In this document: positions 1 to 48,269 of the stretch, piece by piece
Layout: each line of letters opens with the position of its first letter
Position numbering within the stretch: position 1 is the stretch's first letter
The notes under the pieces: model-generated
Told to the model about the DNA's origin: nothing
Databases searched by the model: none
What the model saw: the letters and a program-made list of their open reading frames with translations, nothing else
Program-made: the position numbers and the translations under genes
NCBI GenBank assembly: GCA_973895155.1
Contig: OZ316895.1
Span: forward strand, 16,222,070-16,286,069
Direction: 5' to 3'
Length of the DNA stretch: 64,000 bases
Source: Marsupella aquatica
Lineage: Eukaryota > Plantae > Marchantiophyta

Positions 1-2924
1 GAACGATTCCCAGAGTGAGTGATGCGAGATTTTGCAACCAGGTGGTGAGCCCCGTTCTCCTCTCTCTGGACCACAGTAACAATCAGGGCCTTTGCTGCTC
101 CCCGACAGTTGATCCTCACCCGAGTTCCCTTTCTCAGATGCGATAATTTTCTCCCCGGTGTCTTCCTATCTTTCTTCGACTTGAACACCTTTCGCTTTTG
201 GAGATGCTCTTCTGGTCTGCTCTCTCATCTCTCATCACTCCGAAAGACCACTGGCGAATCACCGTACAGGGAACTGATGGGGTCCTGACGTGATTGGTTG
301 GCACTGACGAAAAAGCTGCAACCGAGCTTTATTTATTTGTCTTGTTGCTTTCTGTCGTGCTCTGTGATGATAAGTAGTACCTAGTTTTCCTTCGTCCTGA
401 GTGGCAGCTCTCGACAGAACCAGCGAGAGTGGGAGAGACACAACAATGGCTGTGTCATCTTTTCTAAACTAGTCTTTTGGGGGAGCAGCACGAGGGGCAC
501 GCAAGCACTCAGTCATTCCTCCGACTCATGACTGGCAACTGCTCTCTCCTGTCGTCTGTCCCCCATTGACGAGGAGGTCAATCTCCCTTCCTCCGTCCCT
601 CGACTGTAGCGAGAGTTGCTGCTATTGGGTCGAATATCACATGTCGAAGCAAATTCCGCGGGCCTGGGCGAGCCTCCGCACTAGGACATTGAACATTCGC
701 AATCAGGCAGGCAGAAATGAAGCCCGGCAGGCGGGGGGCAAAGGGCATTCGCAGAGTCTCATCACTCTGCAGCAGCAGCCCACAAAGCTATACTTACTCA
801 TTCTGATCAGTGATTGATTGTTGGAGTCAACTACTTGCTGGAAAAGCAACATCGTGTTCGGAACAGGTTGGGTCGGGGAATAATTGTTGGCCAAGAACGC
901 GGAAGGGCTCTACTACTACTACTGTCGATCTACTCAGTCTACAGCGCAGTCATCATAGGAGTGTTCCAGGATATCGAGCATGAAAGTTCATAATGATCGA
1001 TCTCGTAAATGACCCCGTCACCCACTCTAGCTTGGGAATTGATGGACTAAAGCAATTTTCAAAGGTCACTCTGCATGATAGTATTTCGGCAAAGGCGGGT
1101 CAAATGTTCTCGATCAGTGAAGGAGAACACGACTCGCAGTCACACATCTCCCTCTTGCTTTTCCGTCAGTAGGTCTCACTTCAACTTTACTCTAGGTCAT
1201 TGCAACCATACCTGAGCGGCGTGATCACGTTCGTAGCATGCTGGAAATCGAATGAATTTGAGAAAGAGCAATTGACGTTACGCTGCATCGATGATGCTTC
1301 ATTAGTATGCTGATCGAACGTAATTAGAGACACCCCGTTTGCGGATGGTGTAGATGGAATCTCATGAGGTGTATGCGGCTCCCTGCTAGAGAAGACTAGG
1401 AGGGGAGGGGCACAGAGACACAAGTAATCTGAACTATACCGTTCGATTATAATTTACACTAGTGGGCCCGAGACTAGTAAATATGTAACATCGACTTGCG
1501 CTCGCGTGATCGCTGGAGTAGATTTCCTGTACGACCTTTTGAGAAGTCTGGTCAGAAGTTCTTCATTCCGCACCGCTGAATAATATGCCACCCAACAGCT
1601 GAATAACTGCACCCGCACAAGCCTGGTATAGTATCATCATCATCACAATTCTGCGGTAGTGCAGTAGGTTCAACGCACCCGGGCCTACACTCCTCCTCCT
1701 CCTCCTCCTCCTGCACAACGATCAATCCCGCGACAGTAGCCGTGTTGTTTGTCATCACAGACAACCACCAATTCGTGTGCAAATGCACGAGCACCACAAG
1801 AAGAGGCAAGCACATTAAATCATTAATCGCTCGAAAAGCAGGGAGGGATCCGGAATGAATCGAAAGTGGGTCTGACTACGTCTGCAAAAAGTGATTGAAA
1901 CGCAATCTCAAGGAGAACCTGGCGAGAGGTACATGCTCACCTGTTGCACACAGTACCGTCCTTGACTGTACTGTTTGAACCGTAGGTTACGAGGTCCAAT
2001 GTCCTATTGGGATTCGAATTTTCTCATAAAGCGACGATAGCTGATGAGCTTACCATTCTGATTCTCAGATGCGGCCTACCGTACAGATGGCAAGAAATCA
2101 ACAACTCCCATCCTCAGGGTATTATTAGATTGTCGGATAATAATGAGTTCATCAGTTGCTTTTGAGATCCCTGTCATCAAGCCTGCTGTACATCGCAACA
2201 TCCTTTTGGAATTATTACGAGGTCAGATGACCTGCTAAGCAGCTTTATTGATGGAGCCTCCATAGGGCACTCATCACAACCCCAATATTAGCGATGTTTT
2301 CTATCTCTAATGTACATTGTGCACTGAACATGTTCCAAGACACAAAAGCCCCGGGTAACCACTAATGCTGCCTGCATACAGTATCACTCTTCCCTTTCCA
2401 AAGAGGCACTCAACCCCCACCATTTTGTTATCTGGATTTAAAAGCACAAGCCACCATAGTATAGTGCCAATGTCGACATCCACAATTCCAGTTCCACAGA
2501 GGTGGAGCATTCAGCACCCTCAATCTGGATATCATTTTGCCTCTGGATCATACCCTGTTCAGGTCTAAAGAAACGAGCCTCCCCCTCCTGTTTGACCACC
2601 AGTTTTTCCAGACAATCAGGTCCGAATTCCCTTACGGAGTGGATGGAGTTTCCATATGGCATCAAACGCCTCAGGGACCCCTAGCAAGTAACACATTTCA
2701 TTTGGGGTCCCATCAAGCAAATCACTCTCAAGGGCCCCCACATATGTACATTTGTTATCTGGATTGTGCCAAATGCAAGCTTTATTTTTTTAGTTTTCCT
2801 ATCAAGTGGGGTTCTAAAGATACCAGCCCTCCATTCCATACCGATCTTGTCCTTGATCCTGTGTAGGCAAACAGTCCAACTCCTTTCACAACACAAATAA
2901 CAATGATTTAGCTGATTGGGTCTC

Positions 2925-3284
2925 TGTCATGCCGAGGGACAGTGCCTTTTGTGCACATCGGCATGTCCCTCGCATGCCCGCTAGGTATGTAGTTAGGGCT
3001 AGTGTACTACTTGAGTTAGTGTCATGTTCTTGTAGCGAGTCTGGGCTGTTCTTGAAGCAAAAGGGGTTTGTTAGTGTGGCGCCTGGACCTGGTCCTACTT
3101 AGGGCATGTTTTTCTTTATCGTTCTTCAGTTCTTCTTGAATCGCTGTTGACAGAGCTCAGACAGTGCTCGTCGGTTCCGTACACAGGATTCACACAGTGA
3201 TTCGTTAGATGCTCCCGGCCGATCTTGGCATCCCGCCAGTTTTTGATTCAATTTCAGTACGATTGTTTCTCTTACGCCTTTTAT
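2925..3284 (+). repeat. Terminal segment A (360 bp) of copy 1
   Basis: Homologous to 38907-39266 and 48448-48805. The right boundary is set by where the 48448 copy stops matching (…CGCCTTTTAT). Confidence 0.88.
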
Positions 3285-3297
3285 TCAAGAAGAACTG
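3283..3297 (+). promoter_or_regulatory. Putative self-priming primer-binding site
   Basis: ATTCAAGAAGAACTG at the A boundary is the exact reverse complement of CAGTTCTTCTTGAAT at 3127-3141. There is no TGG-starting tRNA-type PBS here. Confidence 0.6.
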
Positions 3298-6200
3298 CCG
3301 AGTTGGCGGTGAGGGGAAGAAGATAGAAGACATTCTCGTCTCAGATGTTTATGTCGGTTCAGACAATTTCCGTCGAAACCGGTGCAATTTCTTTGAGCAA
3401 CAATGGAGGGACGAGTTGAAATTATGGGTTCAATATGGTGTTATGTGTATACTTAACATAAGTATACACATAACGCTCCCGTTGGAGCCTGACTTTTCTT
3501 CCCAGTTGTACCCGGGGACCCTTTGCTGCTTCCGACTGTGGCTGCTGACTGCCACTACCTTTTTCGGGCCAATTTTGCGATGTTTTTGCAGGAGGGGCTG
3601 TCTGCATAGGGCCACGAGCCCCTTCTTGGCTGCGCCTCCCTGCGCCATGCTACCTTCCGGCCGGCTACAAGCCACGGGTTGCAGGTCGATGCCTTTACTC
3701 TTGCTCGGAGCCCTGTAAAGGGTCGCACGCCAGGTTTATTTTCGCCTCACGGCTGTGTTCGTACTGCGTCCTTCTCCCTCTGTGTATACACATCGGGGGC
3801 GACAACCTTCCCTTACCATTTTCTTTTCCTTCTGCTCACCGGTACGTGCATAGGGCATCGTGCCCTCCACTCGATTAGGACTCGTTTTCTTTCTTTCCCC
3901 TTTGCCGTTTTCTTTCCTTCCCCCCGGTTGCCAGCACTTAATAGGGGAGAGGGAGCGAGTACAAGCGAGAGCTGAGAGAGAGAGGGCACGAGGCCCTATG
4001 AAGAATTAAGGAGGGGAGGGGGAGTTCACGTCGACTCCCCTCGGGAGCCCTGCCAAGCACGAGGCCCAACTTACAGGGCATTAGAGGAGGGGAAGGGAAG
4101 CGCAAGGAGTGGGCACGAAGCCCTATGCTGACATAAAGAGGGGGAGGGGGAGTAATCATTCGACTCCCTCTCTCGGGAGTCATCCTGCAGGGCACAGAGC
4201 CCACTTTTAGCATTAAAGCAGGGGAGGGGGAATTCAATTAGACTCCCTTCTCTTGGGGGTAGGTTCACCTGTGGCCAGGCAGGAGCGCAAGGAGAGGGCA
4301 CCCGGCCCTAGGCAGCATTAAGAGGGAGTCGATTCCTTTTGCCAGGCCCAAAACTCATTTAAGGAGGGGAGGGGGAGTTAGTCGCTCCCTTCTCTTCGGG
4401 AGCACATCAGGAGCCAGGAGGGGGGGCGTGAAGCCCTATGCAGGGCCCGAGCCATTGATTGGGGCCCCATTTCTTTCCTTTCGCTGTGCCCTCGCCCTTT
4501 TCTTTTTCGCCTCGCTTCGCTTTCTCTTTTATTCACCTGCAGCAAAGCGCACGGTGCCCCCGAGTGTGTATACACACTCGTTCGGTTGCCGGTCCCCACC
4601 TGATTTTTCTTTTCGGTAGACGCGCACCTTCTGTCAGTTCCCGGGTCCACATCGGGGCCCAATGTATACACATAACTGGGCCCCATGTTTATACATTTGA
4701 AAAGGCCCAGGTATACACATGGGACGGCAATCCGACATCGCCTATGTATACACATAGGCAAGCACAACGGGGACACAATTTGAGGTTTTAAGGGTCCCTT
4801 TCCCTGATGGTTTTTCGACGGTGACGGGTTTTCTCAGTGCTTACACATTCTACACATTTTTGCCTCGCATTGTTTGTTTCCTTTGTGGGTTTCATTTCCT
4901 AGCCTTGGGGCTGCCATTTCTTTTTCTTGTCAGTTTCTTTCCCATCGGCACCCCAAGTGAGCATGCAGCATGTCAGCAGAGGAGCCGACTCATAGCAGCT
5001 CATCGCCACCAACACCCAGGTACCACTTGCGGAGTGATCCACGATCGTTGGTGCCAATTTCATTGGAGTCTCGGCAATTTCGATGACGTCAACAGACAGC
5101 AGCAGCACCCACACCACGCAATCCTTCTGCTACATTTGGCGGTCGCTTCACCTCTACCCGAAGCCTGCTATCACTTCTTTGCCTTTTTCTCCTTCTGCAT
5201 CAGTGATTGTTCCAGCTTCACCGACATACAGCATGGATGCCAGTCACTCATCTAGCTGCATTGAGCGCTTCAGCGGGCGGCCAGGCACTGTCTCTTTACG
5301 TGAGTTCAAATCCACTTTCTACACTGTCGTTTATGAATTGGTGTTGAAGTATGGCAGCAATTTCACAAATGCTTTTGCATTTAAGTAGCTAGCCAGGTAT
5401 GTGCACCATGAGGCTTTGGATGTGTATGAGCAGCACTCTCAACGGCTGCTTGCTGTCACACAGTTGCCTAACCCTACGTATGCCAGTGCAATTGCGGCGG
5501 CCTCACAATTGGCCTTACAGAATGCCATTGCAGCCCATGCTGCTGCTCCTGCCACTTCCCCTCCTACTCCAGTTCCTACCACTGCGCCAGTTACTCCCAC
5601 TGTCTTGGCACAGGCTACATCAGGCATTTGTCCCACCATTGATTCCCCTGCCTTTGCTGATCCAATGGCTGAGTTTTTCCAGGTTCTTGAATTGGAATTC
5701 CCAATCAAGAGTGCTGATAAAATCATGCAGTTGGCCACCTTTGTGAGGCAGCGCGATGAAACATTGAAGATGATGTATCGCCGGCTTCTCAAGCTAAAGG
5801 AGGACACCCAGAGCATCACTGACCTGGAAGCTGCTCATCGCTATCTTTGCGCATTGGAGGGCACACCAGCTCTCCATTTTCAAGTGTTGTAGCAAGTATT
5901 CTCAGAGTTTGGAGACAACTACACCTTGCTCAATGTCTATGACACTGCTGAGAAACTTGAGTTGGCCCATGCACATTATGAGGCCAGTATTGCGCGTCCA
6001 CCGCGATCCAGGTACCAAGCTACTGCCCCTACACTGGCCACTCCTTCCCGTGTGCCACAGTATGGTTCCAAGATCAAGCCAGCACATGCTGCTTCATGCT
6101 GCCATCTTGCAACTACTGTGGTAACCCTAATCACAAGGCTAATGAATATGATATTGTTGTTGAGGACCTGTCTTGTGATTTTTGCGGGAAAGTGGGCCAC

Positions 6201-8079
6201 TTGGAGGCAGTTTGTTTTGCCAAATTCCCCGATAAAAAGCAGCTACGACAGCAGGCCACTCATCCTGCTCCTGTTTCCACTCCCCCACCAGCTAGGAGGG
6301 CTCCTACTGCATCAATTGCTCCTCCTTCCAGTGGCAAAGCATCCAGTCATAACAAATTGCCCAAGCAGCAACAGAAGCAACCAGCTCAGAAGGACGCTCA
6401 CAACGCACAGGCAACTCAACTCCAGTCTCTGACTCATGAGGTTGAGTCATTACGTGCCCAACTTGCCAACATCAAAGGCAAGTCCACTGCCTCTCCTAGT
6501 CCTTCTCAACCGGCTGGTCACGTGCAACCCATCCCTAGCCTAGGCACCACTGACAGTTCATCACCCATACCCGCTCTTTCTATGGCTTGCCATTTGATGC
6601 TCATATGGGTGAGTGTGTGCTGTCCTCTGCTACACAGCCTGGCCGTACAGCAGAATTTTCAGATTCATTCTGCCCTTCCTATTTTGCTTACCAGCAGGCC
6701 AGTGCTGCCTCCCGTATTGCTCCCACACGCCGCATTGTACAGGCTGATGGTCTTGCTGCTGGTCCTATGACTAGAGCCAGGGGAGCTCGGGCTGTCATGC
6801 CCCAATCTTTTCAGCCACTCACACTTGCTGAAGAGCGCACCTTGTTGGCGAGGGGCGAGGGAGCTGTAGCTACATCCATTCCACCACCAGGTGCTGCTGA
6901 CATTTCACAGGGAGTTGTTTTTCCTGAGCTGCTTGAGCATTTCACCTTCGGTATGGCACAAAGGATTCTTACCACTCCACTTTTCAGTTGCCATGATTTA
7001 CAGTTGGATGCTAGAGCTGTCATCAGAGCGCTAGAGGGCTCACTGCATTCTTCATCAGCCCCTGTGACACCGGTTTTGGAGGTCCAATCTCATGTACATC
7101 CTGGACCTTCTTCTTCTCCATTACATGCTTCCACTGGTTTGGCTATCCCAGTACCGATTTCTAGTGGTAGAGATGACAGTATTGCTGCAGATTGTGTGAC
7201 CAGAGCTACACTTGATTCTGGTCATGCTGCTCCATCTTTCTTGGCTATGCTGTTGAGTGGGAAGACCGTGGACACTAACTCCCTTCACAAGGTACCTCAT
7301 CATTTGCCAAAAGTGGTGCCTAGTGACAGGACTTTAGTTTCCACCACCATTGCCATTGTTGACAACAGGAATTCAGCAGTCAAGTTGGAGGGTCACACTC
7401 CTCAGGTGGTCATGCTAGACACAAGCGCTCAACCAGTAATCTTGGGCATTCAGTTTGCCAAGAAGATGGGACTGCTGACTGATCATTTACAGCAATCCAG
7501 GTGGCACATTCGGACTGCTAGTGGCACTATGAAGGATGTGTTGGGTGAGAGTTCTACTTTACTCACTCTCACTTTTAATGGAGGTACAGATCAGGAACTG
7601 CATTTCCCAGTCAGATGTTTGGTTACCAATGCCACTACGTATGATGTGCTCATTGGCCAAGAGGCTTTGTTCCCACCAGGTTTTACCATTAACAACTGGC
7701 ATGAGCATGCATACTACAGAGTTGATTGGCATACGGATGGCTCACACTTGGGATACATTCCACTTGATTTGCATGGTGCCCATACCCCTATGGCTCACCA
7801 CTGTGTGTTGAAAGCAGTGCACACAGCTACCTATGTCAACCACCCATTGCAGGATTGGATTGAGGAGGATGATGATGAGGTGGCTACTGCACATGCTGCT
7901 GCACGTATAGCAGCCCTTTCCAGCAACGTGGATCATCAACCAGAGGTGGTACAACGGCTCCAAGCAGCCCATGGACCTTTGGTGGCTGCATTGCACAAAT
8001 TTGAGGACCTTGGGCAGCACAATGGACAACCAATAGCCCCAATCTTGAGCGCACCAGTTACATGGACTCCTCCTTCAGA

Positions 8080-9020
8080 TGGCCTTACATTGCTTGAGCT
8101 TTTTGGTGGCATTTCTACAGGCCTGGAAGCTCTCCTAAAGTCTGGCATGGTGGTGAAGCAGTACATCTATGTGGATATTGATCCAGGTGCAAGGCAAGTG
8201 GCTGAATCCCGTCTGCTGGAATTTTCAGAGCGATTTCCCCAACAGTTTCCGCATAGTGCATGGACGTCTGCATTTTCTTTCTTCCCTCCAGATATCCAGC
8301 TTGTCCAGCACCGGCACTTAACCCTTCTTGGCTCCCTTGATTTGATCATAGCTGGTTGGGAATGCCAAGGGTTTTCAGCTGCTGGTCACGGTGCTGGACT
8401 GCATGATTCTCGTTCTGGCCTTTTCACAGCATTGGTTCAAATTCTCACCTGGGCTCAATCCCTTTATCCTGCTATTGGTTATATCATTGAGAATACTCCA
8501 TCTCAGTTTGACCAGCGTCCACAGGTCAAAGAGGATTTCAGTGTGGTCCAGCACTACTTGGGACCACCCCTTCTCATTGATGCAGTGCACTGTGGTTCTT
8601 ATGCACATCGTCTTCGTAACTTTTGGACTAACCTTGCACCACCTTCCTTGCTGGAGATGGCTCTTCACCACACATCCAGGGACACTAACCTCACAGTGGA
8701 CCAGATTTTGGATGCTGACAGTCCTTGCGAACCAGTTACACGGCAAGAGCCAACACCTTGGTATCCAGCCAATACCATTGGACAACCCCGTGCTGCTTGG
8801 CCTACATTTGTGTCCTTTCCAGGTGCACATGCTTTTTAGGGTGATGGTCCTGGTCTGGTTTATCGACATTCTACCGGTACATGGGATGAACCTAGTCCTG
8901 AGGAGAGAGAACGGGCTATGGGCTTCCAACCCGGTACTACAGGTCACACCAAAATCACCAGGCTGGCCAGGAATGCTTTACTTGGCAGGGTAATGGATCT
9001 CAATGCTCTCACTTGGCTTA
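8080..9020 (+). other. DNMT3/DRM-like C5 DNA cytosine methyltransferase domain within the polyprotein
   Basis: Motif I LLELFGGIS, IV IIAGWECQGFS (Cys kept), VI YIIENT, VIII AHRLRNFWTNL, IX EERERAMGFQPGTT, X RLARNALLGR. These resemble DNMT3 AHRARYFWGNL / EMERVFGFP / RLARQRLLGR. There is an in-frame TAG at 8837-8839. Confidence 0.88.
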
Positions 9021-12000
9021 TGGTCACTTGCATCCTTTTTCAGGTGTCCATTCCTCCAGCATTAGGAGCTCCAGCCCTACCACTCCACAGTGTTGTTGCA
9101 TGGCATCCAGACCAGGTGCACTTACCTCTGTCCAACACTCACCACTTCAGTCCAAGTGTTGGGGGGGAGGAGGTCCCTTGTAATGCGGCTGACATTATTT
9201 CTGAGTTTCATGGTGTGGACCACTTCAGATCAGCAGGTACAACAGGCCTTGGAGAGGCCTCATCACCTTATCAGCAGCATGCTAGCAGCTTGGACAGTGG
9301 AGAGGCTGGCACTTCTGGCTCTTCAAGCACGAGTACATCAGGTCCTATTCCTAGTGTTGCCAACTACACATTTATCATGGGCAACCACCTGAGTAAAAGA
9401 CAGAAGGACCAACTGCTGAATTTTCTCCTCAAGCATGAGAATGTGTTTGCTTTCTCTATGAAGGACTTGGGTAAGTGCAAGACTATGCAGTTCTCCATTG
9501 AGTTGGTTGATGAAACACCTATCTTCAGGCGGAGACACCGTTTGAGTAAGCATGAGTGGCAGCTGGTGGATGAGAGGTGCCAAGAGCTCTATGAAGCTGG
9601 TCTTATTCAGCCATCTACATCAGATTTTGCAGCAGCTACAGTGATGCCAGCAAAGAAGGATTCCAGTGGATTGTGGACAGAGAAGCGCATGTGTGGGGAC
9701 TACAGGCCATTGAACCTGGTCACACCCCATGACAGGTACCCCATGCCGCGGCCAGAGGAGCTATTTGACAGTATTGGAGACTCAGACATCTTCACTCTTG
9801 TGGATCTAAGGCAAGGCTTCAACCAGATTTTGCTGCTTGCAAAGGATCGCAAGAAAACATCTTTCCATGGTAGTAACCAACTATGGGAGTGGTTGGTGAT
9901 GCCATTTGGCTTGAAGAATGCGCCCATATTCTTTCAAAGAGTCATGGACCAGGTTCTTCAAGGTGCTGAGTTTCTGAAATGCTACATTGATGATGTGTTG
10001 GTCCACAGCAAAGGATTTGACCAGCATCTACTTGACCTTGAGGAGCTATTCATGAGGCTTAAGAAGGTGAACCTAAAGATACAGCCCAAGAAGTGTGAAT
10101 TTGCTGTCAGATCAGTAGTATACCTTGGGCACCGCATTCTTCCAAATGGAACCATGGCTCACTGGGCCAAGGTGGCATCCATCTTGGAAATGCCCACTCC
10201 TACCGACGTTCACACTTTGAGGAGCTTTATTGGGTTGTGCAATTACTACCGGATCTACATCAAAGATTTTAGTACCATTGCACACCCATTGTACTCTTTG
10301 TTGAAAAACAATGTGCCTTGGACATGGAGTACAGATGCTGAGGCAACATTTGCCACTTTGAAGGAGAAGCTCTCAAAATACCCAATGCTAAGAAGACCTG
10401 ATTTCAGCAAGGTCTTTGTGCTACACACAGATTGGAGTGCCCTTGGGATTGGTGCCATTCTGGGCCAGCATGATGAGGAAGGTAAAGAGTATGTCATTGC
10501 CTATGCATCCAGGAGCAACAATCAGGCAGAGAGTCATTATTCTTCTTATGAGGGTGAATGCCTTGCTGTTGTGTGGGCTATCATACATTACAGGCCCTAC
10601 CTCTATGGGACCAGGTTTGTTCTCTACACCGACCACCAGCCCTTGAAGTGGTTGATGACCAATGACAAGCTTACTGGCAAGCTTGCTCGTTGGGCGCTCA
10701 TACTCCAGGAGTATGATTTTGAGGTAATTCATAGGCCTGGTGTGACACATCAAAATGCTGACACTATGTCCTGCAGCCCTTTGATTGCCTCTGATGATCC
10801 CTCAGATGCACGGTAGGATTTTGACCAGGTTTCCATCCTGCCTACATTTCATGCATCTACCTATCTTGCTTTGTTGCCATGCTACATTGTTGACCAACCT
10901 GTGGTGGACATATGGGAGAACAACGACACTCTGAGATTTTTGCAGGATGGGGAGTACCCCACCCATGTTACTGCTGCCCAGAGAGACCGAATTCAGCAAA
11001 GGTCCAAGCGCTACTTGTGAAAGGGAGATTATCTTGTGCCGCTGCTTGCCAGACAGGGAAGTGGTGGTTCCACCCATTCATGAGAGGGTTGGCCTTATCC
11101 GTAAGGTACATTCTAAGCTTGGTCATTTTGGTGTTAAGAGGACTTATAGCCTCTTGGTCCCCCATTATCATTGGAGAGGCATGCATGGCTAGGTTCGAGA
11201 TGTTATTGCCCGGTGTGAGCAATGTGATAGGGTAAGGACTTCTTTCACATCTCGGCAACCCACACTTCATCCACTCCCTATTCAGGGCATGTTTTATCGT
11301 TGGTCATGTGATTTGGCTGGAGAATTACCCCTCACATCTCGGGGTAATCTCTACATCATGATCATGATAGAGCATTTCTCCAAGTGGATAGAACTTGTGG
11401 CATTGCCAGATAAGACCTCCCGTAGCACCAGCCAGGCATTCTTGCAACAAGTTCTCAGCCGCTTTGGAGCTTGTGCATAATGTCTCACTGACCAGGGCTC
11501 AGAGTTTAGAGGAGAGTTCCAGGAGCTGCTTGATCAGGCTCTCATTGATCATCGCCGGACATCACGAGATCACCCACAGGCAAATGGCTTGGCAGAGCGC
11601 ATGGTTCAGACATGCAAGAAGGGCCTTCGGAAGATCTGCCTCACCAAAAACAAGGAGGATTGGGACCTGGCCTTACCCTACATTGCCATGGGGTATAGGA
11701 TGTCCAGACATGCATCATTGTCTAACTTTTCTCCCTACTTCTTGTTGTTTGGTCGTCACCCAGTTCCACCTTCTGCTATTGCTTCTCACATGCTTCAGGT
11801 GGTGGACTTGGATTCAGCTGTGACTTGGTCTGATGTGATCTCTGAGAGGGCTGCCCTATTCAGGAGGGTTATGCCCATGGCCATGGAGAATTTGGCCATT
11901 GCACAGCTCAGGGACACACTGCGTTATGCACACACACGAGGGGGCACTTTTCAGCCCAAGGTCAGGAAGTTTGAAGTGGGAGATTTTGTGTACTTGCAGC

Positions 12001-12203
12001 GGCAAGCTAACGACACCCTGGACACCTCTACCAGTCGCACTATTCTCAGGGTCAAAGCTATTCGACCGTTTGGAGTGCTAGAGTTACAAGGGGCAGATGG
12101 GCGCACAATTGCTGACAATGCCAAGAATTGCGCCCCTTGTCATCTGCCTAACCTGGATCCCACCATTGTGACTTCTACTTGGATTCCACCTGTGGACTAC
12201 CCT

Positions 12204-12338
12204 TGCAAAGTGTGTTTGCGAATTGATGATGCTTACCAGATGCCGCTGTGTGACAATTGCAATGGAGGGTACCATCTTTTCTGCCTTCGGCCTGAACTTC
12301 CCCAGGTGCCAGAAGGGTTATGGTTTTGCCCTTCCTGT
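12204..12338 (+). other. PHD finger at integrase C-terminus
   Basis: CKVC-x9-CDNC-x4-H-x2-C-x14-WFCPSC, a C4HC3 pattern. It recurs at ~48078-48212 and, degenerate, at ~28366-28505. Confidence 0.92.
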
Positions 12339-12388
12339 GCTCCACGTGCTATCTGACTTTTCTTCAGCCCTCCTTTTGGCTGTGGTCT

Positions 12389-12395
12389 GGGGGGG
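12389..12395 (+). promoter_or_regulatory. Putative polypurine tract (G7) abutting segment B
   Basis: GGGGGGG lies directly before ATACAGAGG, the first bases of B. The same arrangement is at 48263-48269, and GGGAGG precedes B in the 27.3-28.7 kb copy. Confidence 0.65.
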
Positions 12396-12571
12396 ATACA
12401 GAGGTTTACACCTCCACTACGTACATACCACCTCAGTTGCTTTTTCTTGGCACTTGTGAATGTGATTGAACTTTTTCTATGCATGTTGGTTGCTAGCAGC
12501 TTGCACATATGCATTGCCGGTGACTTGTATGTTTTCGATACACTATGGCTACGATACTATATGTCACGACA
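12396..12571 (+). repeat. Terminal segment B (176 bp) of copy 1
   Basis: Same length and near-identical sequence to 48270-48445 and 48806-48981. Confidence 0.9.
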
Positions 12572-14639
12572 TCTCCCACTTAGCCAATGCCACTGCTTTT
12601 TGCTCAGACTGCTCCAGAAATGTTTTGCACCAACCCAAAATTTTGCAACCATCCAAGCCTCCTAAACCCTGCCAAAAGCCCATTCAAAATGTCAGTAGGA
12701 AGAACTCAGCTGCCAACCAAAGAGAATAAGTTGAAGGTCATCTTGACCGCTAAAGCCTGAGACTAAAATTAAGGCGCTGCAATTTAAAGTAAATTGTCTC
12801 AGTCCATAAGAATGAAACAGAGCAGCTGGTTAATCTCGAGGAGGGATTATCCAAATTGCCGAAAGAATCATGGAGGGAAGAACTGGGTAAACCAAGTGCA
12901 AGTGAAGTTTTCAGCACCTTAATAATTTTTTCTCAAGGATATTGAATGCAGATCAATCAAGCTACCATATTTGAGGCATTGGACCACATGAGAGAACTGA
13001 AAAATTTAGAGACAGTTTGCAAATTGAGAAAAATATGAAATTCCTGTGCTTAAACAACAAATATTTGTAAATTGATAGTTGGAGATGCTAGTAGACAAAT
13101 GAAGACCTTAAACAACTCTTGCCTCAATGCCTCGATGTTGAATACCAACCTAAACACTAAACACTTGCTTGGGGAAACAAATCCAGAGGAATGCCCGAAG
13201 TGTGAAAGACCACACAAGCCAAGTGAACAACAGAAGCAAACCAAGGCCATCCCAAAGATACAAGACACGGCTAAGAATCCAACTGACAAGTGTATGCTAA
13301 ATTCAACTCAATAGTTTGGAAGCTTAAGACCATTGTTGTGGAAAGAGAAGAAATCGGGAGGACCGTTCACCCCTTCTACATGTTTAGGTTTTGGTTTCAT
13401 TTCATGCTCCTGCTTTGTTTGGTGATTGATCTTCATCCACTCCCAGCCTCAGCTATTTTGGGTGATCTTGGAGCCCCCTGGGATTTTGGGCACTATGGCT
13501 TTTGGTTGAAGTGTGCCTTGGCCCTTTGGGTCTGTTTTGTCGTTGCCCCCATTGGTCTTTACTGCGGTGGTCCTTTCAAATCCATTGGCGCACTGTTGCT
13601 TTCCTATTTCTTTTAAAAGGATTGTAATTAAAATAAAGGGAAGGAACGGTTCGTTGGTCCACGCATGTCCCAAGGGGGTGCAAACAGAAAATAAAATGTT
13701 TGAAGTACACGGGTCGGGGTATCTTTGAACTGGTGTGGGGGAAACTTTTCTTTTTAACTAATGTTAGTTTTAATTTTCTGGGAAACTTGAATACCCGTTA
13801 TTAAAGTAAGTACGCATGTGTAAGCGTGTGCTTTCTACAATGTACTGAATGGCTGCGTTCCACTTTTCGCTTCCCTTTTTGTTCGCTTTCTCCCCTGTCT
13901 TATTAATCGTAACGACCAGAATAACTTTATCAAAGGAATTAGAATTTGAAATCCATCTGTTAGCTTAATAAAGAGGCACACGTTTCCACTGGAAGTGCAA
14001 TGCCGCGCTTTTTATGTAAAAAAGGAGTATGCAAAGATACCCTTCATTCCCGTCCAGGTAAAAGAGGTGAAGTAAAGTTAAATACAGACGCTCTTACCAG
14101 CTCATCTCATCAGTCGATTATTCAGAGCAACTACCTGCAAAGTTACTCAGAGTTGTCAGGTTGTAAAGTTCCAAAAAATAATATCATCAATCATGTGTGT
14201 CTGGCTTGGGCTCGTAGCCAATCTACTGGTTTAATTGTGATTGCTGATGACAGTAATGATGTGGACAACGGGTTCCAAGAGCGTTGGCAAAAACACCCTT
14301 ACAATAGTGAGATTCTCTTAAGAATTTCTGGGATGGTTTACTATTACAATGAAAAATGGAAGGCTTTCTGGGTTATAGTTAGGTGTGCATATTGAGTTGA
14401 GCTCAGCAACCAAGGTGTAGGTAGTCATACTTTGAATATGAAGTCCCTAAGGTGAAAGACGAGGATGATAGATGGAGGAGGTTCAACTTACCGTGTTGTC
14501 CTTCCTGTCAAGACTTGATGGTGGATGGTAAGGAGTTCAGATGTTTCTAACTTTCATACATGCTCATGCCACTTCATGGTAAGTGATGATGCTGTCAAAG
14601 ACTATCCCACATGTAGGGATACTCTCTTATTTTAGGCCA

Positions 14640-19210: not shown

Positions 19211-19541
19211 TGTTGAACTAAGATGTCATTCGCAACGACCATACAACCATGACTCATTCCATGCACACGTAGTCGACAAAATCTCTACGTGGTTCACCTC
19301 TTCTCCAAGGCTACGTCCACACGAACACTCAAGCTTTACTTCAAGAGTAGACGAACACACATTCCTCCCTCTTCCTCAAGTTTCTCCGTTACAATGAGTA
19401 AGCATCACATACTAGTGGCTTACACTAGCCCTGGTATATACAAGGTCACACACGACTAACCTAACCTCAGCTAAGACCCTAACTGTGGTTAGCCTAAGTG
19501 CCGTAATCTTTGAGTCACAAGACTAAGAGCAATCCTTAACA
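19211..19541. mobile_element. Solo LTR (Copia-related), 331 bp
   Basis: TGTTGA…TTAACA ends and an AATAC 5-bp TSD. Shares GTAGTCGAC…ACGTGGTTCACCTC…GGCTACGTCCAC with the Copia LTRs at 32103 and 37942. Confidence 0.85.
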
Positions 19542-20150
19542 AATACACCCTGTGAAAGCCATCAGCCATATCTATGAAGCATTGAGACTCCCTATTGTTA
19601 CCAGGTAGACCAAACTCAATTCTAGGCTAATCACGAGCATGCCCACTCCCAACCGTAGTGTTGAAATAAATATTATACTAAGTAGGCAAACTAGGAACCA
19701 GACATTAACCAAGCGAGAGATCAATCCAGTAGGGCAAGCATGTGCAAAGGTGCCCACTGCCTGACCATAGTATTGAAATGAACATTATACTAGGCATGAT
19801 AGGAACCAAAGGGTAACCAAAGCATGGATCAATGAGAGACCAATCAAATAGGCAAGCGGGTGTAAAGGTTGAATCCTTCTAAAGACTTTACTTCATCCCA
19901 CCCAAAAGTGGGTTCACAAAAATTTTAGACACTTAGAAAACATGACCATAGTTTATGCATCAGACAAAGGGGCAACCTGGAATGAGTGCTTAGGGCTCAT
20001 TAAAGCCTTTGACCTGAATAAATTTCATATGGAAGTTAGTAAATTTGGTGGGCACATGTGTAGCCAGGGGTACTGCCTTATGCTTAAATCCTATACAATT
20101 TTGGTATTCTGTTTGATAGTATAAACAAAGCATAGTGTGTCAGGCATCTA

Positions 20151-20682
20151 CCAAGAAAAGACTTAACAGGATCTCTCTAGCATCTCTTGGACTTAACAGT
20201 CCAGCAAGATGCCATGAAGACTTAATAGGACTCCTTAACAGGACCTCTATGACTGCCAATCTTGCCCAGGTCTTGATGGCATTTTACTCACAAGGGTCCG
20301 GTTAAGTCCAAAAGATGTGTTAAGGATTCCTCTTAGTCCTGTGACTCATAGGTTATGGCGTTTAGGCTAACCACAGTTAAGGACTTAGCTGAGGTTAGGT
20401 TAGTCGTGTATGACCTTGCATATACTAGAGCTAGTGTAAGTCGTTGGTAGGTGGTGCTTGCTCATTGTAACGGAGCAACTTGAGGAAGAGAGAGAGCTTT
20501 GTGTGCGACTATTCTGAAGTAAAGTTGTTGTGTTCATGTGGACGTAGCCTTGGAGAAGAGGTGAACCACGTATGGATTGTGTCGACTACATGAGCATGGT
20601 ATGAGTCATGATCGTATCGTCATGAAGGAAGACGTCATAGTTCAACAAGATGCCAGAGGGGTCTTGTTAAGTCTTTTCTTGG
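20151..20682. mobile_element. MITE-like element with ~35-bp TIRs, interrupted by a solo LTR
   Basis: CCAAGAAAAGACTTAACAGGATCTCTCTAGCATCT (20151) versus AGATGCCAGAGGGGTCTTGTTAAGTCTTTTCTTGG (20648-20682), with internal GACTTAACAG repeats. TSD unclear. Confidence 0.6.
20318..20647. mobile_element. Solo LTR, same family as 19211-19541, opposite orientation (330 bp)
   Basis: TGTTAA…TCAACA ends and an AGATG 5-bp TSD. Reverse-complement match to 19211-19541. Confidence 0.85.
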
Positions 20683-27345: not shown

Positions 27346-28697
27346 TGTCATGCCTAGGTACATGGCTGTCGGTTCTGCTCGCCATGGTCCTCGCATGACT
27401 GCCAAGCCTTTGGTACCATTATGTTTTTGTCGGCTTATAATTTGGGTTTTGTTTTCCCAAGTTATGGCCCAATTAGGGCCATGGTTGACTTTATGTTCTT
27501 GTAGGGCAAGTATGGGTGTTCTTCAAGCAAAGCCATTTTTAAAAGACACCTTTTTGCTTCATCTGTTGTAGTTGACATTTTGTTCTTGTGGTGCGTTTTT
27601 GTGTTCTTTGAAGCAAAGTCATTTTGCTTCATTCACTACTTAGGTAGAGTCTTGCTCACTTGTTAGCTAGTTTTTCTTGAATTATTCTCGAGAAAGTGTG
27701 AGCAATTCAGATAGCTCTCCATTCCATACAGGGAATTAGACGTTGATTTGTTAGATGCTCCAGATTGATCTGGCATCCTGTCTGTTTTCATTTCATTGTC
27801 GGTTAGTTAAGTACACCCGTTTCTATGACGCATTTTTATTCAAGAAAAACTTGATGGCTTCCATGGGGTATAGGATGTCTTAGCATGCATCATTGTCTAA
27901 TTTTTCTTCCTACTTTTTGCTGTTAGGTAGGCACCCAATTCCACCTTGTGCTATTGTGCCTCCATGCTTGCGATGGTGGATTTGGACTCAATGGTAACCT
28001 GGTCTGATGTGATCTCTGAATGGGTTGCTCTATTCAAGAGGGTTACGCCGATGGCCATGGAGAATTTGGCCATATCACAACATAGGGAGACACTCCGGTT
28101 TGCACACACCGGTGTGGGCAATTTTCAGCCCAAGGTGAGAAAGTTTGAAGTAGGGAATTTTGTTTATTTGCAGCGGCAGCCCAATGACACCTTGGATACT
28201 TCTACTAGTCCTACCTTTCTCAGGGTTAAGTCCATTTGGCCACCCGGAGTGCTACAGTTACAAGGGGTAGATGGGCACACAATTTCTGATAATGCTAAGA
28301 ATTGTGTTCCTCGTCACTTGCCTAACCTTGATCCCACTATTGTGACTTCAACTTGGATTCCACCTGTGTAAGGTGTGTTTGTGCATTGACGATGCTGATC
28401 AGATGTTACTGTGTGATGATTGCAATAGTGGCTACGTACCATCTCTTCTGCCTCCGGCCTGAATTGACACAAGTACCAGAAAACTTATGGTTTTGCCCTC
28501 CATGTTCACCACTTGCAACTTGATTTGCTTCAGATCTCTTAATCTTTCTTGGCTATGGTCTGGGAGGATATAGAGGTTTACACCTCCACTACGTACATAC
28601 CATCTCATTGTTTGAGTACATTTGCAACATGTTTCATGTTTTTGAGTTTTATGAACTTAATGGTTTTGTCACATGTTTACAATGTTTATGTCACAAC
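27346..28697 (+). mobile_element. Internally deleted, diverged copy 3 of the DNMT/PHD retroelement family
   Basis: Starts TGTCATGCC. An A-like segment ends TTTTATTCAAGAAAAAC, then the sequence jumps to integrase (ORF 27946-28371: VDLDSMVTWSDVISE…NLDPTIVTSTWIPPV), a degenerate PHD, GGGAGG-ATATAGAGGTTTACACCTCC (B start) and ends ATGTCACAAC. The TSD is degraded (CCCA / CCTA?). Confidence 0.82.
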
Positions 28698-29361
28698 CCT
28701 ACACCATCCCCTGGTCTATGTGACCCTGGAACTCAAATGAGTGTTATCCTAGTCTTCAAATTCCTAACTAGTACTATTGAAGTAAATAGGTTATAATAGT
28801 GGCATAACCTAACATACCTCTTTTGTACGTTATCACACAAGCCTTGATGTCGGTGGTACTTCAAGCCAAACAGTTCAAACAACCAATGAGATGAGCTGAC
28901 AATCCAGCTCATGAATTTCTCAACAGGCAAGAGGCTTGGTCTAAACAAATTCCATCAACTGTGAAATACTAAATCACTGGTTTGACAAAACAGGATTTGA
29001 AAAAACTGAATACATAATATCTTTGGAGACTGTGAGCCACTGCAACATCTCCAAAAACCATGTATCAAGTTGCAAGTTAAAATCTGAATCACCAAATTTT
29101 TCAAGAAACCAAGAGACCCTTGGAAAGAGACCCAAACACCAAAGTTTCTCAAGAATCCTAAGATACACAAAATGTTTTTTGTGATTGTAATCGACCCAAA
29201 GAAGGTTTAGTTTAGTTTAGTTTAGTTCAGTTTCTCCTTGACTGGGGAGAATGTATTGACAAGTGATTCCTTTGCTTCTTGACTTCAAATTGTATTGGAT
29301 TCTCTGTTTGTACTCCAGCTCTCGCTCCAGCTAGATATGGATGTCATAATTGGAACCTCAA

Positions 29362-29663: not shown

Positions 29664-32102
29664 CATAATTGGAACCTCAAGGTCAACAGAACTTAGAATA
29701 GCTTTCTTGCTGGGCACCTATGCTCTTTCAGGGCAACTTAAGCACAATTTGCATCTAACTGAAGCTAGATCCTCAAGTAAGCCATATAGTCCATATTGAT
29801 ACAGATGGGAAAACCCCCTTTGGCACTATGGGGTTGTTTAGTAGTCTTTTTCACACCATAGATGTACCACGTGGGAAAGTACACTTGTGCATTATGGGGC
29901 TGAACTCTCAGAATTGGCAATAGATGCACTCACTCACTCACAGGTAGTGAACTGCTTTGCGAAAGTTGAGGAGGGGCCCCTCAACCTATTTTCCCACTAT
30001 AACTCTGAGCATGAACTAGACAAAACTGAAATTCCTCAAGTACTCATCACTTACATTGAGAGTTAGATTCTGTAATTGTAGGTTTAGCAGGCTTCTCAAG
30101 AATAATATAAGTCACTTCTGGTCTCAGTTTCTAAGGTTGAGGTCCACTCTTGGTGTGTCATCAAGACAGTGTCCCATGGCACGTCACTCAAGAGATTTCC
30201 CACTCTTTCAAATGTGTTTCAAACAGACATGATCTTACAAAAGAACAAACTGAACACCAAAATCCATTGGTTACCTCACTAAGCTCAACCACTCAAGCTT
30301 TCCACACCCAATACAATTATCCTCCAGCCCAACCATAACTATTGCAGCTGGATGATGTGATTGTGAAACATTTGTCCATGCACCCTATCGACCACTATTA
30401 ATTGCAACCGTCTGCACTTCTGTTGCCAACGCAAAGGCCAGCCCAAAATGTCTGCCTCTATTGCTCAGTCTCTACTGCAGAATAACTTTCTTTGATATCC
30501 ATCTCCATTATGCTTCCAGCATGCGAGCCTGTGGATCCAAAAATGCAGAATTCTAGCTCTGACAAAATCTAGCAAAATTGGGTGGAGCAGCAACAAAGAG
30601 ATGAAGGAAAGAAGGCACACAAGTGAATCACAAGGCAACTGCATGATAGACAGCACAGTTTACAATGTAGGTCAATAACAAGAAGAGGTAAAGTAAATTA
30701 ATAGCAATCCATGGAAAGGAAGACAACCGAGTATAGTTTGGTTATGATAAACTCTCATATACCAATATGAAATGATAAAATCTGAAAGGTAACCCTTCTC
30801 ACTCTTTGTTGTTTGGAATACAATTTTTATTTTTTAAAACTCTTTTTATGAGTCTTGAGCACAATTGTTTTTGCCCTTCTTATCTCAAACAGAAACAGAC
30901 AAGTCATAGACAGCAATGACATGACAACACAATTTACAGTGACAAAAGTCACCTAGACAAACAATGATATGACAACAAGATGTGCCTGGAATTTTGAAAA
31001 GAACCTGTCAAGCCATTCATAATCTTTATTGGTCTACATGACATTCATTTCTTGTTGCAATTATCAATACATTCAACAAAAGATACAATAGACACTACTA
31101 TGTATTTTTACATCTGTCAAATCCTCTTTTGCAAACTAATACAGAATGTACATTGCAAGCTTACCATTACCTCCCAAGATGATTGAAATGGAAGACAGTA
31201 ATCTTTTCATTGAAGATTGGAGAAGTGAAACATTTGTGATGGACACCTACTATCCCGGGTACTATCCTGCTCATAGAATAATTAATCCGTGTAGTCCCTT
31301 GTTTGTTTGGATAATTAGGGTGTTTTAATTATGGACCCCCATGAGAGATCCCTTGCAAATTTCCTGTCACGAGGTTGTGCCACATCAGCACAACCGGACA
31401 CAAACAAGACAGATCCTATTTTTGACAGTAACAAAAGCGCACATTCATGTTTGTGGCAAAAGCAACGTAATTTTTGGGACGCCATGCCATAAGTATTAAG
31501 CATAAAAAACTAGAATACAAAGGAAGAGATGTCATTTAGTAAAATAAAGTTACCATTTTGATGTTTGTCAATGATATATCAGTGTTTTAAATCAAAGTGC
31601 TTGTATTTTTTAATTGCTTGCAAGTTTGAAAAAATAACCAATCGATAGAAATGTACATAGTTAGAACCCCTTTGGTTCCACATTGTAAAACTAAATAATC
31701 AATCTCCTTAGTATTTGATGAAATCTGTCAATGTTTGATTCATTGGAAAGTTCAAGATCAAGAAACTCATGACCTCTTAAATAGTACTGTCTTGATAAAA
31801 TCTATCAATGTCACATTCATTGGAAAGCTAGAGTAAAATTAGAAACTCATAATCTCCTTAAGTACTTGACAAAATCTATCAATGTTAGGCTCATTGGAAA
31901 GCTAGAGAAATTAGATACTCAAGATCTCTCTAATTCTTGACAAATACTCCCAATGTCACACATTAGAAAGCTAGAGAGATTGAAATCCTCATGATCTCGT
32001 GACAAAATCTAACATGAAATTTGTCAATGTCGGACTCAATGTTGGAAAGCTAAAAGAATTCATGAACTCATGATCAAAAATTCTTATTGTCACACTCATT
32101 GG

Positions 32103-32559
32103 TGTTGAGTATAGACGATAATCGCAACGGTAAGCACATGACATATCCAACATGCAAGTAGTCGACACAAGAGATACGTGGTTCACCTCCTTGAGGCTAC
32201 GTCCACGGGAACACACAAGAGAGCTTTACTGAATTTTAAGCCCGTCGGCTATACCGAGTCTCCACAGTGTAAGCTCTCCCTATCTCTCAAGTGGCTCTAT
32301 AACAATGAGCCTTGGTTCTACTTCTCCAAGCACACGTGCCTCTTATGATATAGTGTGCAACTTAGTTAACCTAACCACATTGTTGTACCTAATCACGTAG
32401 TTGTACCTAACCACATTGTTGTACCTAATCACGTAGTTGTACCTAACCACATTGTTGTACCTAATCACGTAGTTGTACCAAACCATGTTGTTGTACCAAC
32501 CCACGTTGTTGTACCAACCACGTCATACCTAACCTAGACGTAAGAGTAAATACCCAACA
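32103..32559 (-). repeat. Copia 3' LTR (457 bp)
   Basis: Direct repeat of 37942-38326 with extra 18-bp GTTGTACCTAA… units. Confidence 0.93.
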
Positions 32560-32772
32560 CTCTTCCCCTTGACTCTGGTCTAGGGGAGAGTAATACTGCC
32601 AATGTATATGATCCCTCAGCGGAAAGTTCTGGACAAAAACCAAACCGGTTTCCCTCTCTAACTAGAGCAAACCAGAATAAGCCGTAGCCTTATACATAGG
32701 AATGAGGAAGAGCATATATCAGTAATTACAATGAATGTTAAGAAAACTCTACTTGTGATGCAATTGCAAAAC

Positions 32773-35700
32773 CTACAATACGTCATGGTGTCTAGAGAAA
32801 CTCTCCAAAGGAATCACTTTGGTAAATGCGTCAGCCGGGTTGAGTTTACCATCAATCTTGACTAGCTCAAACAAATTATCAGACACAGCCTGCCTGATAA
32901 AATGGTACCTAACGTCAATGTGCTTCACTCTGCTGTCCATCACCTGGTTCACAGCAAGGTGGAGCGCACTTTGACTATCACAATGGAGCTTCACATTCCC
33001 CTGTGGCAATCCCATTTCAGTGATAAGTCTATCCAACCAAATCGCTTTCTTTGCTGCTTCCGCAACTGCAACATACTCCGCTTCTATAGTAGACTGAGCA
33101 ATACACTTCTGCAAAGTAGACCTCCAACTTATGCATCCACCGCCAAGTGTGAACACGTATCCTGTTGTTGATCTCCTTCGGTCCAGATCTTGTCCATAGT
33201 CAGAATCTACATAGCCAATCAATGATCTAGCATTCTTTGCATTCGCATCAAATAAAAGACCATGATCCACGGTACCCTTCAAGTACCTGATAATCCACTT
33301 AACTGCTTCCCAATGTACCTTCCCTGGATTTGACATGTACCTACTCACCTTGCCCATAGCCATGGCAAGATCAGGTCTAGTGCAAGTCATCAAATACATG
33401 AGACTTCTCACTGCCTTATCATAAGGAACCTTTGACATCAGCCCCTTCTCTGTCGCATCTATGGGACAGAAAGCTGATGACAATTTGAAGTGTGCAGCCA
33501 AAGGGGTACTTACTGGCTTGCTATCTCCCATGTTGAACCTAGCAATTACCTTCCTTGCATAACTGCTCTGTGTCAACCATAGCTTACCAGCCTCCAAGTC
33601 CCTAGTGATCTCCATACCCAAAATCCTCTTAGCTGGCCCCAGGTCCTTCATCTTAAACTCTGCATTGAGCAGTGCCTTAAGCTTAACAATCTCAGACCTA
33701 TCCTTGGCCGCAATAAGCATGTCATCCACATAAAGTACTAATACAATAAACCCAAAGACAACATTCTTCACCGGTTTCAAATACACACAAGGGTCAAATA
33801 CACTTCTGTGAAAACTTTGTGACCGAATCCAATCGTCAAACCGCTTGTTCCACTGTCTTGGTGACTGCTTCAACCCATACAAGGATTTCAGCAATCTGCA
33901 AACCAATTCCTCCTGTCCTCTCTTTACAAAACCTGGCGGTTGTCTCATGAAGATCACATCTTCCAAGGTGCCATAGAGAAAAGTTGTGACAACATCCATC
34001 TGATCTAGCAGCAGACCAAACATTACAACAAGTACACACAATAGCCGTATTGTAGAGTATTTAGCAACTGGTGAGAAGACCTCATTGTAATCCACACCTT
34101 TCTCTTGTGTGAATCCCTTTGCTACCAACCTAGCCTTGTAGACCTTCGATCCACCTCCTGTGGAATTATCCTTCAGCTTGTAAATCCACTTGCTGTTCAC
34201 CACTTGCTGACTCTTAGGCAGCTTAACAAGCTCCCAAGTTTTGTTATCATTTAGTGATTGCATCTCCGTTTGCATTGATGCAGTCCACTTCTGCTTCTCC
34301 TTTGAAGCACTTGCCTCATGAAATGAAGAAGGTTCCCCTTCTTCCAAAATTAACGCATCACCCTCATCATCAGTTGCAAAATCATCCTCTTGCAGTTGAG
34401 ATGAATCAACCCACTGTCCATACCTAGGAGGAGCGCGTACAGTACGACCAGATGTTCTTCTAGCCGATGACTTCGGTTGAATTGCGTCTACTGGTACAAT
34501 TTGAAGCTCAACAGCATCCATTTGTTGCTCACCAGCATCAATAAACTCCTCTTGTTCCTCTGGCATAGGAACCAGCTCCATGCTTGGAGCACCTCTTTCT
34601 CTCCAATCATGCACTTCATGATCAATCTCCCCCTCAACGAGATCCGAGATAGGAGATTTTCCTTTGTCAGTACGGGAGACCTGGGTATTCTCCCCTTCCT
34701 TCAATAATCTGGATTGATTGAAAGAAACATCCCTACTGACAACGAGCTTACAGGCAATAGGATCCCATAACCTGTAGGCCTTCACACCACTTTGATACCC
34801 AAGAAAAATACATTTCTTGGACGTAGGATCCAACTTGGTCCTATTCTGCTTTGGTGTGAGAGCATATGCATCACTTCCAAAAACTACCAAGCCATGATAG
34901 TCTGCTTGCCGCTTATAACGCATTTCAAACGGCATTTTGAAATTGATTGCACTAGAAGGAGAAAGATTTACCAAATAAATTGCAGTATTGACAGCTTCTG
35001 CCCAAAATTCCTGTGGTAAACCTGATTGGCTCAGCATACTCCGTGACCGCTCCAATAGTGTTCGATTGAGCCTCTCAGCTACACCATTCTGTTGTGGAGT
35101 ATAAATTATGGTGAGATGACGAGTTATCCCCTATTCTGCACAGTACTCTTCAAATTCTATTGAAGTATACTCCCCGCCGTTGTCTGACCTTAGACTCTTC
35201 ACCCTTGTATCCAAACACTTAACCGTGTTTCCTGTCTGATTCTCTACTTGGGCCTTCCACTTTGTAAAAATGGACAAGACATCAGACTTATGCGTCATGA
35301 AATAAATCCATACAAATCTTGAGTAATCGTCAATAAAGGATACATAGTACAATTTTCTAGAATGTGAGGGAGTCGGGGATGGTCCCCACACGTCACTATG
35401 TATGTACTCAAGAACCGCTTTGGAATGATGAGTTCCAACACCGAAAGCACGACGATGATGCTTTCCAAATATGCAATGCTCACAGAAATCCAATTTACAA
35501 GACTGCAAATCAGAAATGAGCCCATTCTTTGGCAAGATAGCCAAACCCTTCTCACTCATGTGGCCTAGCCGTGAATGCCACAGTTGAGTCATTTCCTCGT
35601 GAGACTTGGTCACATTGGCCTCTCCACATACTGTATTGCCCTACAACACATACAAATTCTTCTATCTGCGCCCCTTCAAAACCACTGTCTCTCCCAACAT

Positions 35701-48230: not shown

Positions 48231-48269
48231 ATTTTCTTCAGCCCTCCTTTTGGCTGTGGTCTGGGGGGG

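Follow-up and report, generated by a model that had tools for sequence, protein, structure and literature searches.

Two questions were raised by this locus: what primes the reverse transcription of a retrotransposon in which the site expected to bind a primer is complementary to a segment of the repeat before it, and how an element with such an order of repeats would integrate. The locus lies in a 64 kb stretch (64,000 nucleotides) of the genome of the liverwort Marsupella aquatica, and this whole stretch, as analysed, is what we call the window. It holds three copies of the element, all on the forward strand: copies 1 (2925-12571) and 2 (38907-48981), which are 94% identical over 7.8 kb, and copy 3 (27346 to about 28698), a diverged, internally deleted relative. 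They are built from two repeats, A and B, and an internal region (int), copies 1 and 3 having the layout A-int-B and copy 2 the layout A1-int-B1-GC-A2-B2. In copy 1, repeat A (2925-3284) starts TGTCATG and would comprise the 3' part of U3 plus R-U5, its U5 end being taken from the A2|B2 joint of copy 2; a G7 polypurine tract (12389-12395) precedes repeat B (12396-12571), the putative 5' part of U3, which ends CACGACA, and there the element stops, with no second A. The corresponding features of copy 2 are A1 (38907-39266), a G7 tract (48263-48269), B1 (48270-48445), A2 (48448-48805) and B2 (48806-48981), where B1+GC+A2 forms the only whole LTR. Copy 3, whose repeat A (27346-27839) represents a diverged subfamily, has lost most of its interior, leaving the 3' end of the integrase-PHD coding DNA and a purine tract (27861-28567) ahead of repeat B (28568-28698, end approximate); as A, primer-binding site (PBS), purine tract and B are all kept around this 700-bp remnant, it is a possible non-autonomous miniature form. 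The long 5' leader contains palindromic TATACACA/TGTGTATA repeats at 3420-3480 and 4560-4760, and GC-rich repeats with purine/pyrimidine skew at 3830-4520, where copies 1 and 2 differ strongly. Elsewhere in the window are a trehalose-6-phosphate synthase gene (60366-62333, minus strand; a 655-aa ORF with a glycosyltransferase 20 domain plus the first part of a trehalose-phosphatase domain), and a pair of 335-bp inverted repeats (19211-19544 and 20315-20647), 84% identical and ~770 bp apart, possibly a DNA-transposon remnant.

The element, with the coding order PR-DNMT-RT-RH-integrase-PHD, belongs to the DNMT3-PHD clade of Ty3/gypsy retrotransposons and is a relative of KnitGypsy-Dnmt3. The gag-pol coding is interrupted by stops and frameshifts, and in copy 1 it survives as ORF pieces for an aspartyl protease with a C5 cytosine methyltransferase (6605-8839), for RT and RNase H (8918-10816), and for the end of the integrase with a PHD finger (11601-12356). 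The decayed gag-pol of copy 2 (40954-48230) additionally has a gag-like part with zinc-knuckle-like motifs, followed by PR, DNMT, RT, RH, integrase and PHD. The order PR-RT-RH-IN was accompanied by a Ty3-type RT, to which the closest solved structures were those of Ty3 RT (E 3e-67), and by a DDE integrase with an HHCC zinc finger, the HHCC and D-D-35-E residues being kept here and across the relatives. The methyltransferase, located between PR and RT, matched PF00145 (E 3e-6) and is assigned at the level of C5 methyltransferase. At the integrase C-terminus there was no match to a chromodomain and a PHD finger stood in its place; a tyrosine recombinase had no match in the ORF pieces scanned, which represent part of the ORFs of decayed copies. 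Named relatives are found in Calypogeia fissa (a liverwort, 85% in integrase-PHD), Sphagnum magellanicum, Klebsormidium nitens and Closterium. In a FastTree analysis of RT-RH (121 rows and 444 columns, with no named Tf1, sushi or Tcn1 sequence included), the window RT fell in a 17-member clade with a local support of 0.999 that held all 9 DNMT-labelled rows, 5 of the 6 PHD-only rows and 0 of the 10 chromodomain-labelled rows. The DNMT-bearing pol P0027 of K. nitens is inside this clade.

A scan of metagenome contigs provided a larger set for comparison, with 568 stretches confirmed, of which the best 80, at 62-78% identity, are the relatives referred to below. Their repeats align with those of the window by blastn over 22 terminal bases at most, and they were therefore treated as a second family. 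They derive from one search of short-read metagenome assemblies, which can collapse B-A-B to B, and apparently from a small number of samples related to one another; duplicates were accordingly removed on the basis of their flanks. This left 20 distinct 5' A copies (24 minus three duplicates and the truncated L039) and 37 distinct 3' ends (48 minus nine duplicates found by script, L064, which duplicates L026, and L020, which is cut by its contig end); 32 of the best 80 loci had no B match and were left unclassed. Viral contigs yielded 0 matches to the arm pattern described next and 0 of 49 confirmed in a protein search; the 31 matches to the junction pattern in these contigs included none with RT similarity and were taken as chance.

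The original prediction had drawn attention to a 15-mer in the position of a PBS in copy 1 (3283-3297) that pairs perfectly with another inside A (3127-3141), to the same pair in copy 2 (39109-39123 and 39265-39279), and to arms in copy 3 (27669-27682 and 27838-27851) in which both partners had changed. On re-reading the sequence, the letters at all six coordinates were exactly as given, with perfect pairing in copy 1, an identical pair in copy 2 and changes on both sides in copy 3. Across the whole 64 kb window, these are the only three perfect inverted repeats of at least 14 bp whose arms are 60-300 nt apart. When each A+PBS region was shuffled with its dinucleotides preserved, 0 of 1000 shuffles reached the observed pairing length, i.e., 15 against a shuffle maximum of 12 for copy 1, 14 against 13 for copy 3, and 15 against 11 for the relative L050. 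The duplex was present in both the minimum-energy and the centroid folds of the predicted leaders of these same three copies; the fold energy of the whole leader was unremarkable for copies 1 (z -1.47) and 3 (z -1.21) and unusual for L050 (z -3.22). The base pair 3127/3297 is absent from copy 3 and mostly missing in the relatives, so the conserved duplex begins at A3128. In copy 1, the 3' arm consists of 2 nt of U5, repeat A ending at 3284, and a 12-nt PBS at 3285-3296.

This boundary bears on the size of the primer. The A2|B2 joint gives an independent mark for the end of A, past which exactly 12 nt of complement are found in both families; the A|B joint would record the end of the cDNA and therefore predicts the length of the primer. 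The predicted start and self-primer are placed at 3128-3139 in copy 1 (where pairing extends to 3141), 39110-39121 in copy 2 and 27669-27680 in copy 3, and the predicted PBSs, directly after A, at 3285-3296 (complementary to 3128-3139), 39267-39278 and 27840-27851, respectively. A start near position ~203 of A had been proposed, and the start now predicted lies one base further on, at 3128 (A position 204); likewise, the 15-nt pairing holds and the predicted primer within it is ~12 nt, not 15. In the 20 distinct 5' A copies from relatives among the best 80 of 568, on which the TATA and pairing counts are based, a TATAAA box starts 32 nt (18/20) or 31 nt (2/20) before the 5' arm. Between the first 12 positions and the site after A there were at least 9 Watson-Crick pairs in 18 of these 20 and at least 10 in 15, with just 7/12 in two, counts that are biased upward by the location of the 3' arm through best complementarity. 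The window copies have no canonical TATA box. They carry a TACTTAGG motif at -32 (3096-3103 in copy 1, with equal spacing in copies 2 and 3) of uncertain role, which was downgraded as the window's TATA equivalent on finding that the relatives carry the motif ~30 nt further upstream.

What, then, would be the primer? The TGG expected of a tRNA 3' end is absent at the PBS position, and the letters of the PBS differ between the two families, each matching its own family's 5' arm. On this basis, self-priming of the Tf1 type was supported as the best explanation, and with a primer of ~12 nt we regard it as highly probable; where transcription starts, cutting by RNase H and the priming itself are all inferred. 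Tf1-like is meant here of the mechanism only, the element having a PHD finger and no chromodomain. Alternatively, priming might fall to half of a host tRNA or to some other small RNA, with the 5' arm mirroring the PBS for folding, dimerisation or packaging. In both families the last bases of the arm may resemble a Ser anticodon loop, which we took to count for such a primer, and half-tRNA priming is described for plant copia lineages in the accessible part of PMC6317226. Against it are the missing TGG, the existence of three PBS variants that each match their own arm, the coincidence of the arm with the TATA-predicted start in 20/20 relatives, and an Rfam search of 2900-3500 that returned no tRNA-like match, only 2 weak miRNA-family matches far under threshold. 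We consider a primer of this kind quite improbable. ARAGORN made 3 doubtful tRNA calls on the loci and the window, which were not used.

Covariation across family members had been named beforehand as a check on the duplex, and it was borne out in that paired changes were found and pairing is conserved across copies. In an eight-row alignment, which includes 5 relatives chosen from the 20 for good pairing, three column pairs change on both sides, and 100% of cells pair in register versus 41-59% when slid. Duplex position 5 is C-G in copies 1 and 2 versus T-A in copy 3 and the relatives; position 10 has a double change, T-A to A-T, that sets the window family apart from the relatives; and position 8 has a double-sided change in one relative. 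As we read the alignment, the covariation is about three independent events, no large sample. Taken alone, the change in copy 3 (C>T with G>A) is compatible with two methylation-type transitions. Because copy 3 has its T-A in common with the relatives, it is probably C-G, as in copies 1 and 2, that is derived, and the change at position 5 would therefore not be a methylation artefact.

The second question concerned the order of the repeats. With the purine tract placed before B and the PBS after A, the true LTR produced by reverse transcription should be B+A, and repeat A, so interpreted, is the 3' part only of that LTR. The tips of this LTR, ATAC... and ...AT, are not TG...CA. It is the inserted ends, TGTCATG...CACGACA, that have this form, and they meet inside the LTR at a palindromic CA-GC-TG with a 2-nt spacer. 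The sole intact inner attachment-like site in the window, at 48436-48454 in copy 2, consists of CACGACA at the end of B, the spacer GC (48446-48447) and TGTCATG at the start of A. B2 of the same copy is fused to the U5 end of A2 without a PBS or purine tract, a putative end-to-end joint of cDNA. A B before the 5' A was found in 0/20 relatives (among the best 80 of 568) and 0/3 window copies, and neither the relatives nor the window copies have the two whole LTRs at the insert ends by which Ty3/gypsy elements are recognised. Instead, exact 4-bp duplications lie at the A start and B end of copies 1 (TCTC, 2921-2924, repeated at 12572-12575) and 2 (ATTG, 38903-38906, repeated at 48982-48985); copy 3 has no clear target duplication. 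Further CATG-centred inverted repeats occur at the A start in both families (window 2925-2990; L009 4027-4075), and in the relatives B closes with its terminal motif repeated in tandem (14 nt), both being possible subterminal integrase-binding sites. Some 5' A copies tandemly duplicate their first 13-100 bases (L026, 3674-4063; L011, 4581-4615).

Copy 2 sits in a repeat, and an empty paralogue of this site, on the minus strand near 51100, has the ATTG 4-mer once. The repeat family involved (31727-32102, 38327-38904 and 48992-49135) has been split in turn by a Ty1/copia element (32103-38326, minus strand; RVT_2, copia gag and zinc knuckle, with ~96% identical terminal repeats and an 18-bp tandem array inside) and by copy 2, and an uninterrupted inverted copy of it at about 50951-52068 provides the empty site. 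Contigs of four public runs covered all 30 bins of copy 2, with 2,580-12,171 contigs per bin, and among the matches listed there were contigs that join across the whole element (empty sites).

Among the relatives (best 80 of 568), the 37 distinct 3' ends comprised 19 with B-A-B, 2 with a partly deleted B-A-B and 16 with B alone. All 21 of the B-A-B forms have a B|A spacer of 2 nt, mostly GC or transition variants of it. The A|B joint of these same 21 forms is precise in 9, has indels of 1-3 nt in 10 and large deletions in 2. A variable joint is the pattern expected of end joining. For 13 complete relatives (best 80 of 568), the 4-bp duplications were exact in 7 (L060 read directly and 6 by global alignment alone), off by one in 3 and not clear in 3, and in controls exact matches occurred in 0/156 cross pairs and 0/13 for 5-mers. 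In the five relatives in which the repeats of one element were compared (best 80 of 568), A1 was nearest its own A2 in 5/5 and B1 nearest its own B2 in 3/5. At the level of sequence, the inner attachment site and the permuted layout are present in two families.

Could these layouts have arisen by later rearrangement of ordinary LTR elements, or by assembly error? Recombination from B to B could convert A-int-B-A-B to A-int-B with the duplication retained, and assemblies can collapse repeats. Neither process accounts for the 0/20 5' ends with B, for the empty paralogous site or for duplications located at the start of A and the end of B, and the layout recurs in the window, in the second family and, going by the figure legend available for it, in Klebsormidium, so we consider this origin very improbable.

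The reading that we favour is that integrase acts at the inner site of a circle. The transcript would start at 3128/39110 inside A1 and end inside A2, RNA bases 1-14 would pair with the U5 end plus the PBS, and RNase H would cut after about base 12, as in Tf1. Ordinary reverse transcription and strand transfers would then yield linear B-A-int-B-A DNA whose ends lack TG...CA, and either the linear ends would be joined to give a 2-LTR circle or recombination would give a 1-LTR circle. Integrase would cut both strands of CA-GC-TG, each of them after CA, and this stagger would leave 2-nt 5' overhangs, the same ends as those of normal 3' processing; upon insertion the spacer would be lost and the 4-bp duplication made. 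The B|A spacer is absent from the insert ends, matching the proposed cut. A 2-LTR circle cut at the CA-GC-TG of the LTR preceding the PBS would become A-int-B-A-B, which is transcribable and has R at both ends. The A-int-B form would come from a 1-LTR circle, from cutting at both sites or from later B-to-B recombination; this form needs no circle, and with neither a 3' R nor a complete U3 it would be a dead end as far as movement in cis is concerned. The A|B joint would not come from reverse transcriptase rounding its circular intermediate, because a PBS would then follow U5, and without a PBS there the joint therefore needs the two cDNA ends to have been joined.

All of these steps are read from inserted copies, and their strengths differ. 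Cutting by integrase at the inner LTR site we hold to be very likely, and a circle as the substrate likely. That integrase opens 1- or 2-LTR circles at this site, and that only the 2-LTR form can retranspose, is probable, and the same measured confidence applies to the whole model of an element that is both self-primed and circle-integrating. A self-primed element whose inner sites are cut in linear DNA is its main competitor: cutting both inner sites of one cDNA would give A-int-B, and head-to-tail cDNA dimers, formed by end joining or an end-to-end jump of reverse transcriptase, would give A-int-B-A-B. These two linear routes, taken jointly, we consider unlikely. They would produce the very inserts observed, with the A|B joint variable as it is, and inserts cannot separate them from circles; linear DNA, moreover, is the proven precursor in retroviruses according to the sections available of PMC11054761. 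Counting against them, they require the joining of two molecules to be frequent enough for 21/37 ends (best 80 of 568), whereas reverse transcription commonly yields one-molecule circles as by-products, and no tandem whole elements occurred among the relatives within the 10-kb flanks.

The layout has precedents, none of which has the same combination of parts. KnitGypsy-Dnmt3 of Klebsormidium nitens (de Mendoza et al. 2018, PMC5890265) was described in the legend of Fig. 4c as having DIRS-like repeats and Gypsy domains, and, as drawn there, it shares with the window element a Gypsy pol with a cytosine methyltransferase and, with copy 2 and the relatives, A..B-A-B repeats. The portion of that paper available to us gives no priming mechanism, target duplication, inner attachment site, A-int-B form or layout model, and 'PHD' appears 0 times in its main text. 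PAT-like elements, Ngaro, VIPER and TATE likewise begin with A1 and finish with B1-A2-B2, and it is in tyrosine-recombinase elements that split direct repeats have otherwise been described (PMC6681497, in part). PAT-like and Ngaro elements carry a tyrosine recombinase, whereas the window element has a DDE integrase, TG...CA ends, 4-bp duplications, a PBS and a purine tract. Should the window element nonetheless move as they do, its transcript would run from the A1 start to the B2 end, its circle would close through A and B, a tyrosine recombinase would be supplied in trans, and the arms would be leader structure. The A..B-A-B layout common to Ngaro, PAT, VIPER (PMC6681497, in part) and the KnitGypsy-Dnmt3 drawing is in keeping with this. 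The TG...CA ends, the 4-bp duplications of unrelated targets, the conserved DDE residues, the TATA box inside A, the purine tract before B and the lack of a recombinase match in the ORFs scanned all point away from it, and we give it hardly any credence.

As for priming, the self-priming signal by itself would add one more lineage to a known mechanism. The RNA of Tf1 pairs through its first 11 bases and is cut by RNase H between bases 11 and 12 (PMC7175516, in the text available), and Tf1/Tf2, Tj1, Tf1/sushi and the plant Tcn1 and TAR lineages have a PBS complementary to the 5' end of their own RNA, as predicted here (PMC7175516, PMC4600332, PMC6317226 and PMC2864245, each in part). In so far as those sources cover the Tf1 group, the window element differs from it in a primer of ~12 nt, in having PHD and DNMT instead of a chromodomain, and in LTRs that are non-terminal in the inserted copy, and self-priming, demonstrated for Tf1, is for the window element predicted.

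For integration, the closest parallel is an old one. The 2-LTR circle-junction model of Panganiban and Temin (1984), like the proposal made here, had integrase act on a symmetric internal circle junction, and it was rejected for retroviruses, in which linear DNA is the precursor and 2-base, not 4-base, 5' extensions were found (PMC11054761, in the sections available). Unlike in that model, the cut site here lies within U3, not at the circle joint, and the 2-nt spacer would give 2-base extensions. The copy-out-paste-in insertion sequences of the IS3 and IS30 families have in common with the proposal made here a DDE enzyme that cuts abutted ends with a 2-3 bp spacer in a circle. These are bacterial DNA elements with a junction made by transposase, while the junction of the window element is a permanent part of its LTR, copied by reverse transcriptase. 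Teaching on retroviruses and LTR elements treats circles as dead ends. How the Gypsy-DNMT3 clade primes or integrates was described nowhere in the literature searched, which covered few subscription journals and Repbase reports, and a 2026 preprint (bioRxiv 10.64898/2026.05.21.726589), in the part available, mentions streptophyte Gypsy-DNMT3 only in passing.

For the family as a whole, we lean slightly towards a broader statement: that a clade of Ty3/gypsy elements in bryophytes and streptophyte algae may be self-primed and may have moved its attachment site into U3, with the 2-LTR circle as the required precursor of every retransposable copy, a built-in palindromic junction that is cut, and a split-repeat layout reached independently of the tyrosine-recombinase elements. 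Tools that seek two terminal LTRs would overlook such elements. If the proposal is true, split direct repeats could be read as permuted 2-LTR circles, an idea that is testable on PAT and Ngaro elements, and here would be a retroviral-type integrase that normally acts on an uninterrupted internal junction, with a 19-bp site available for its test in vitro.
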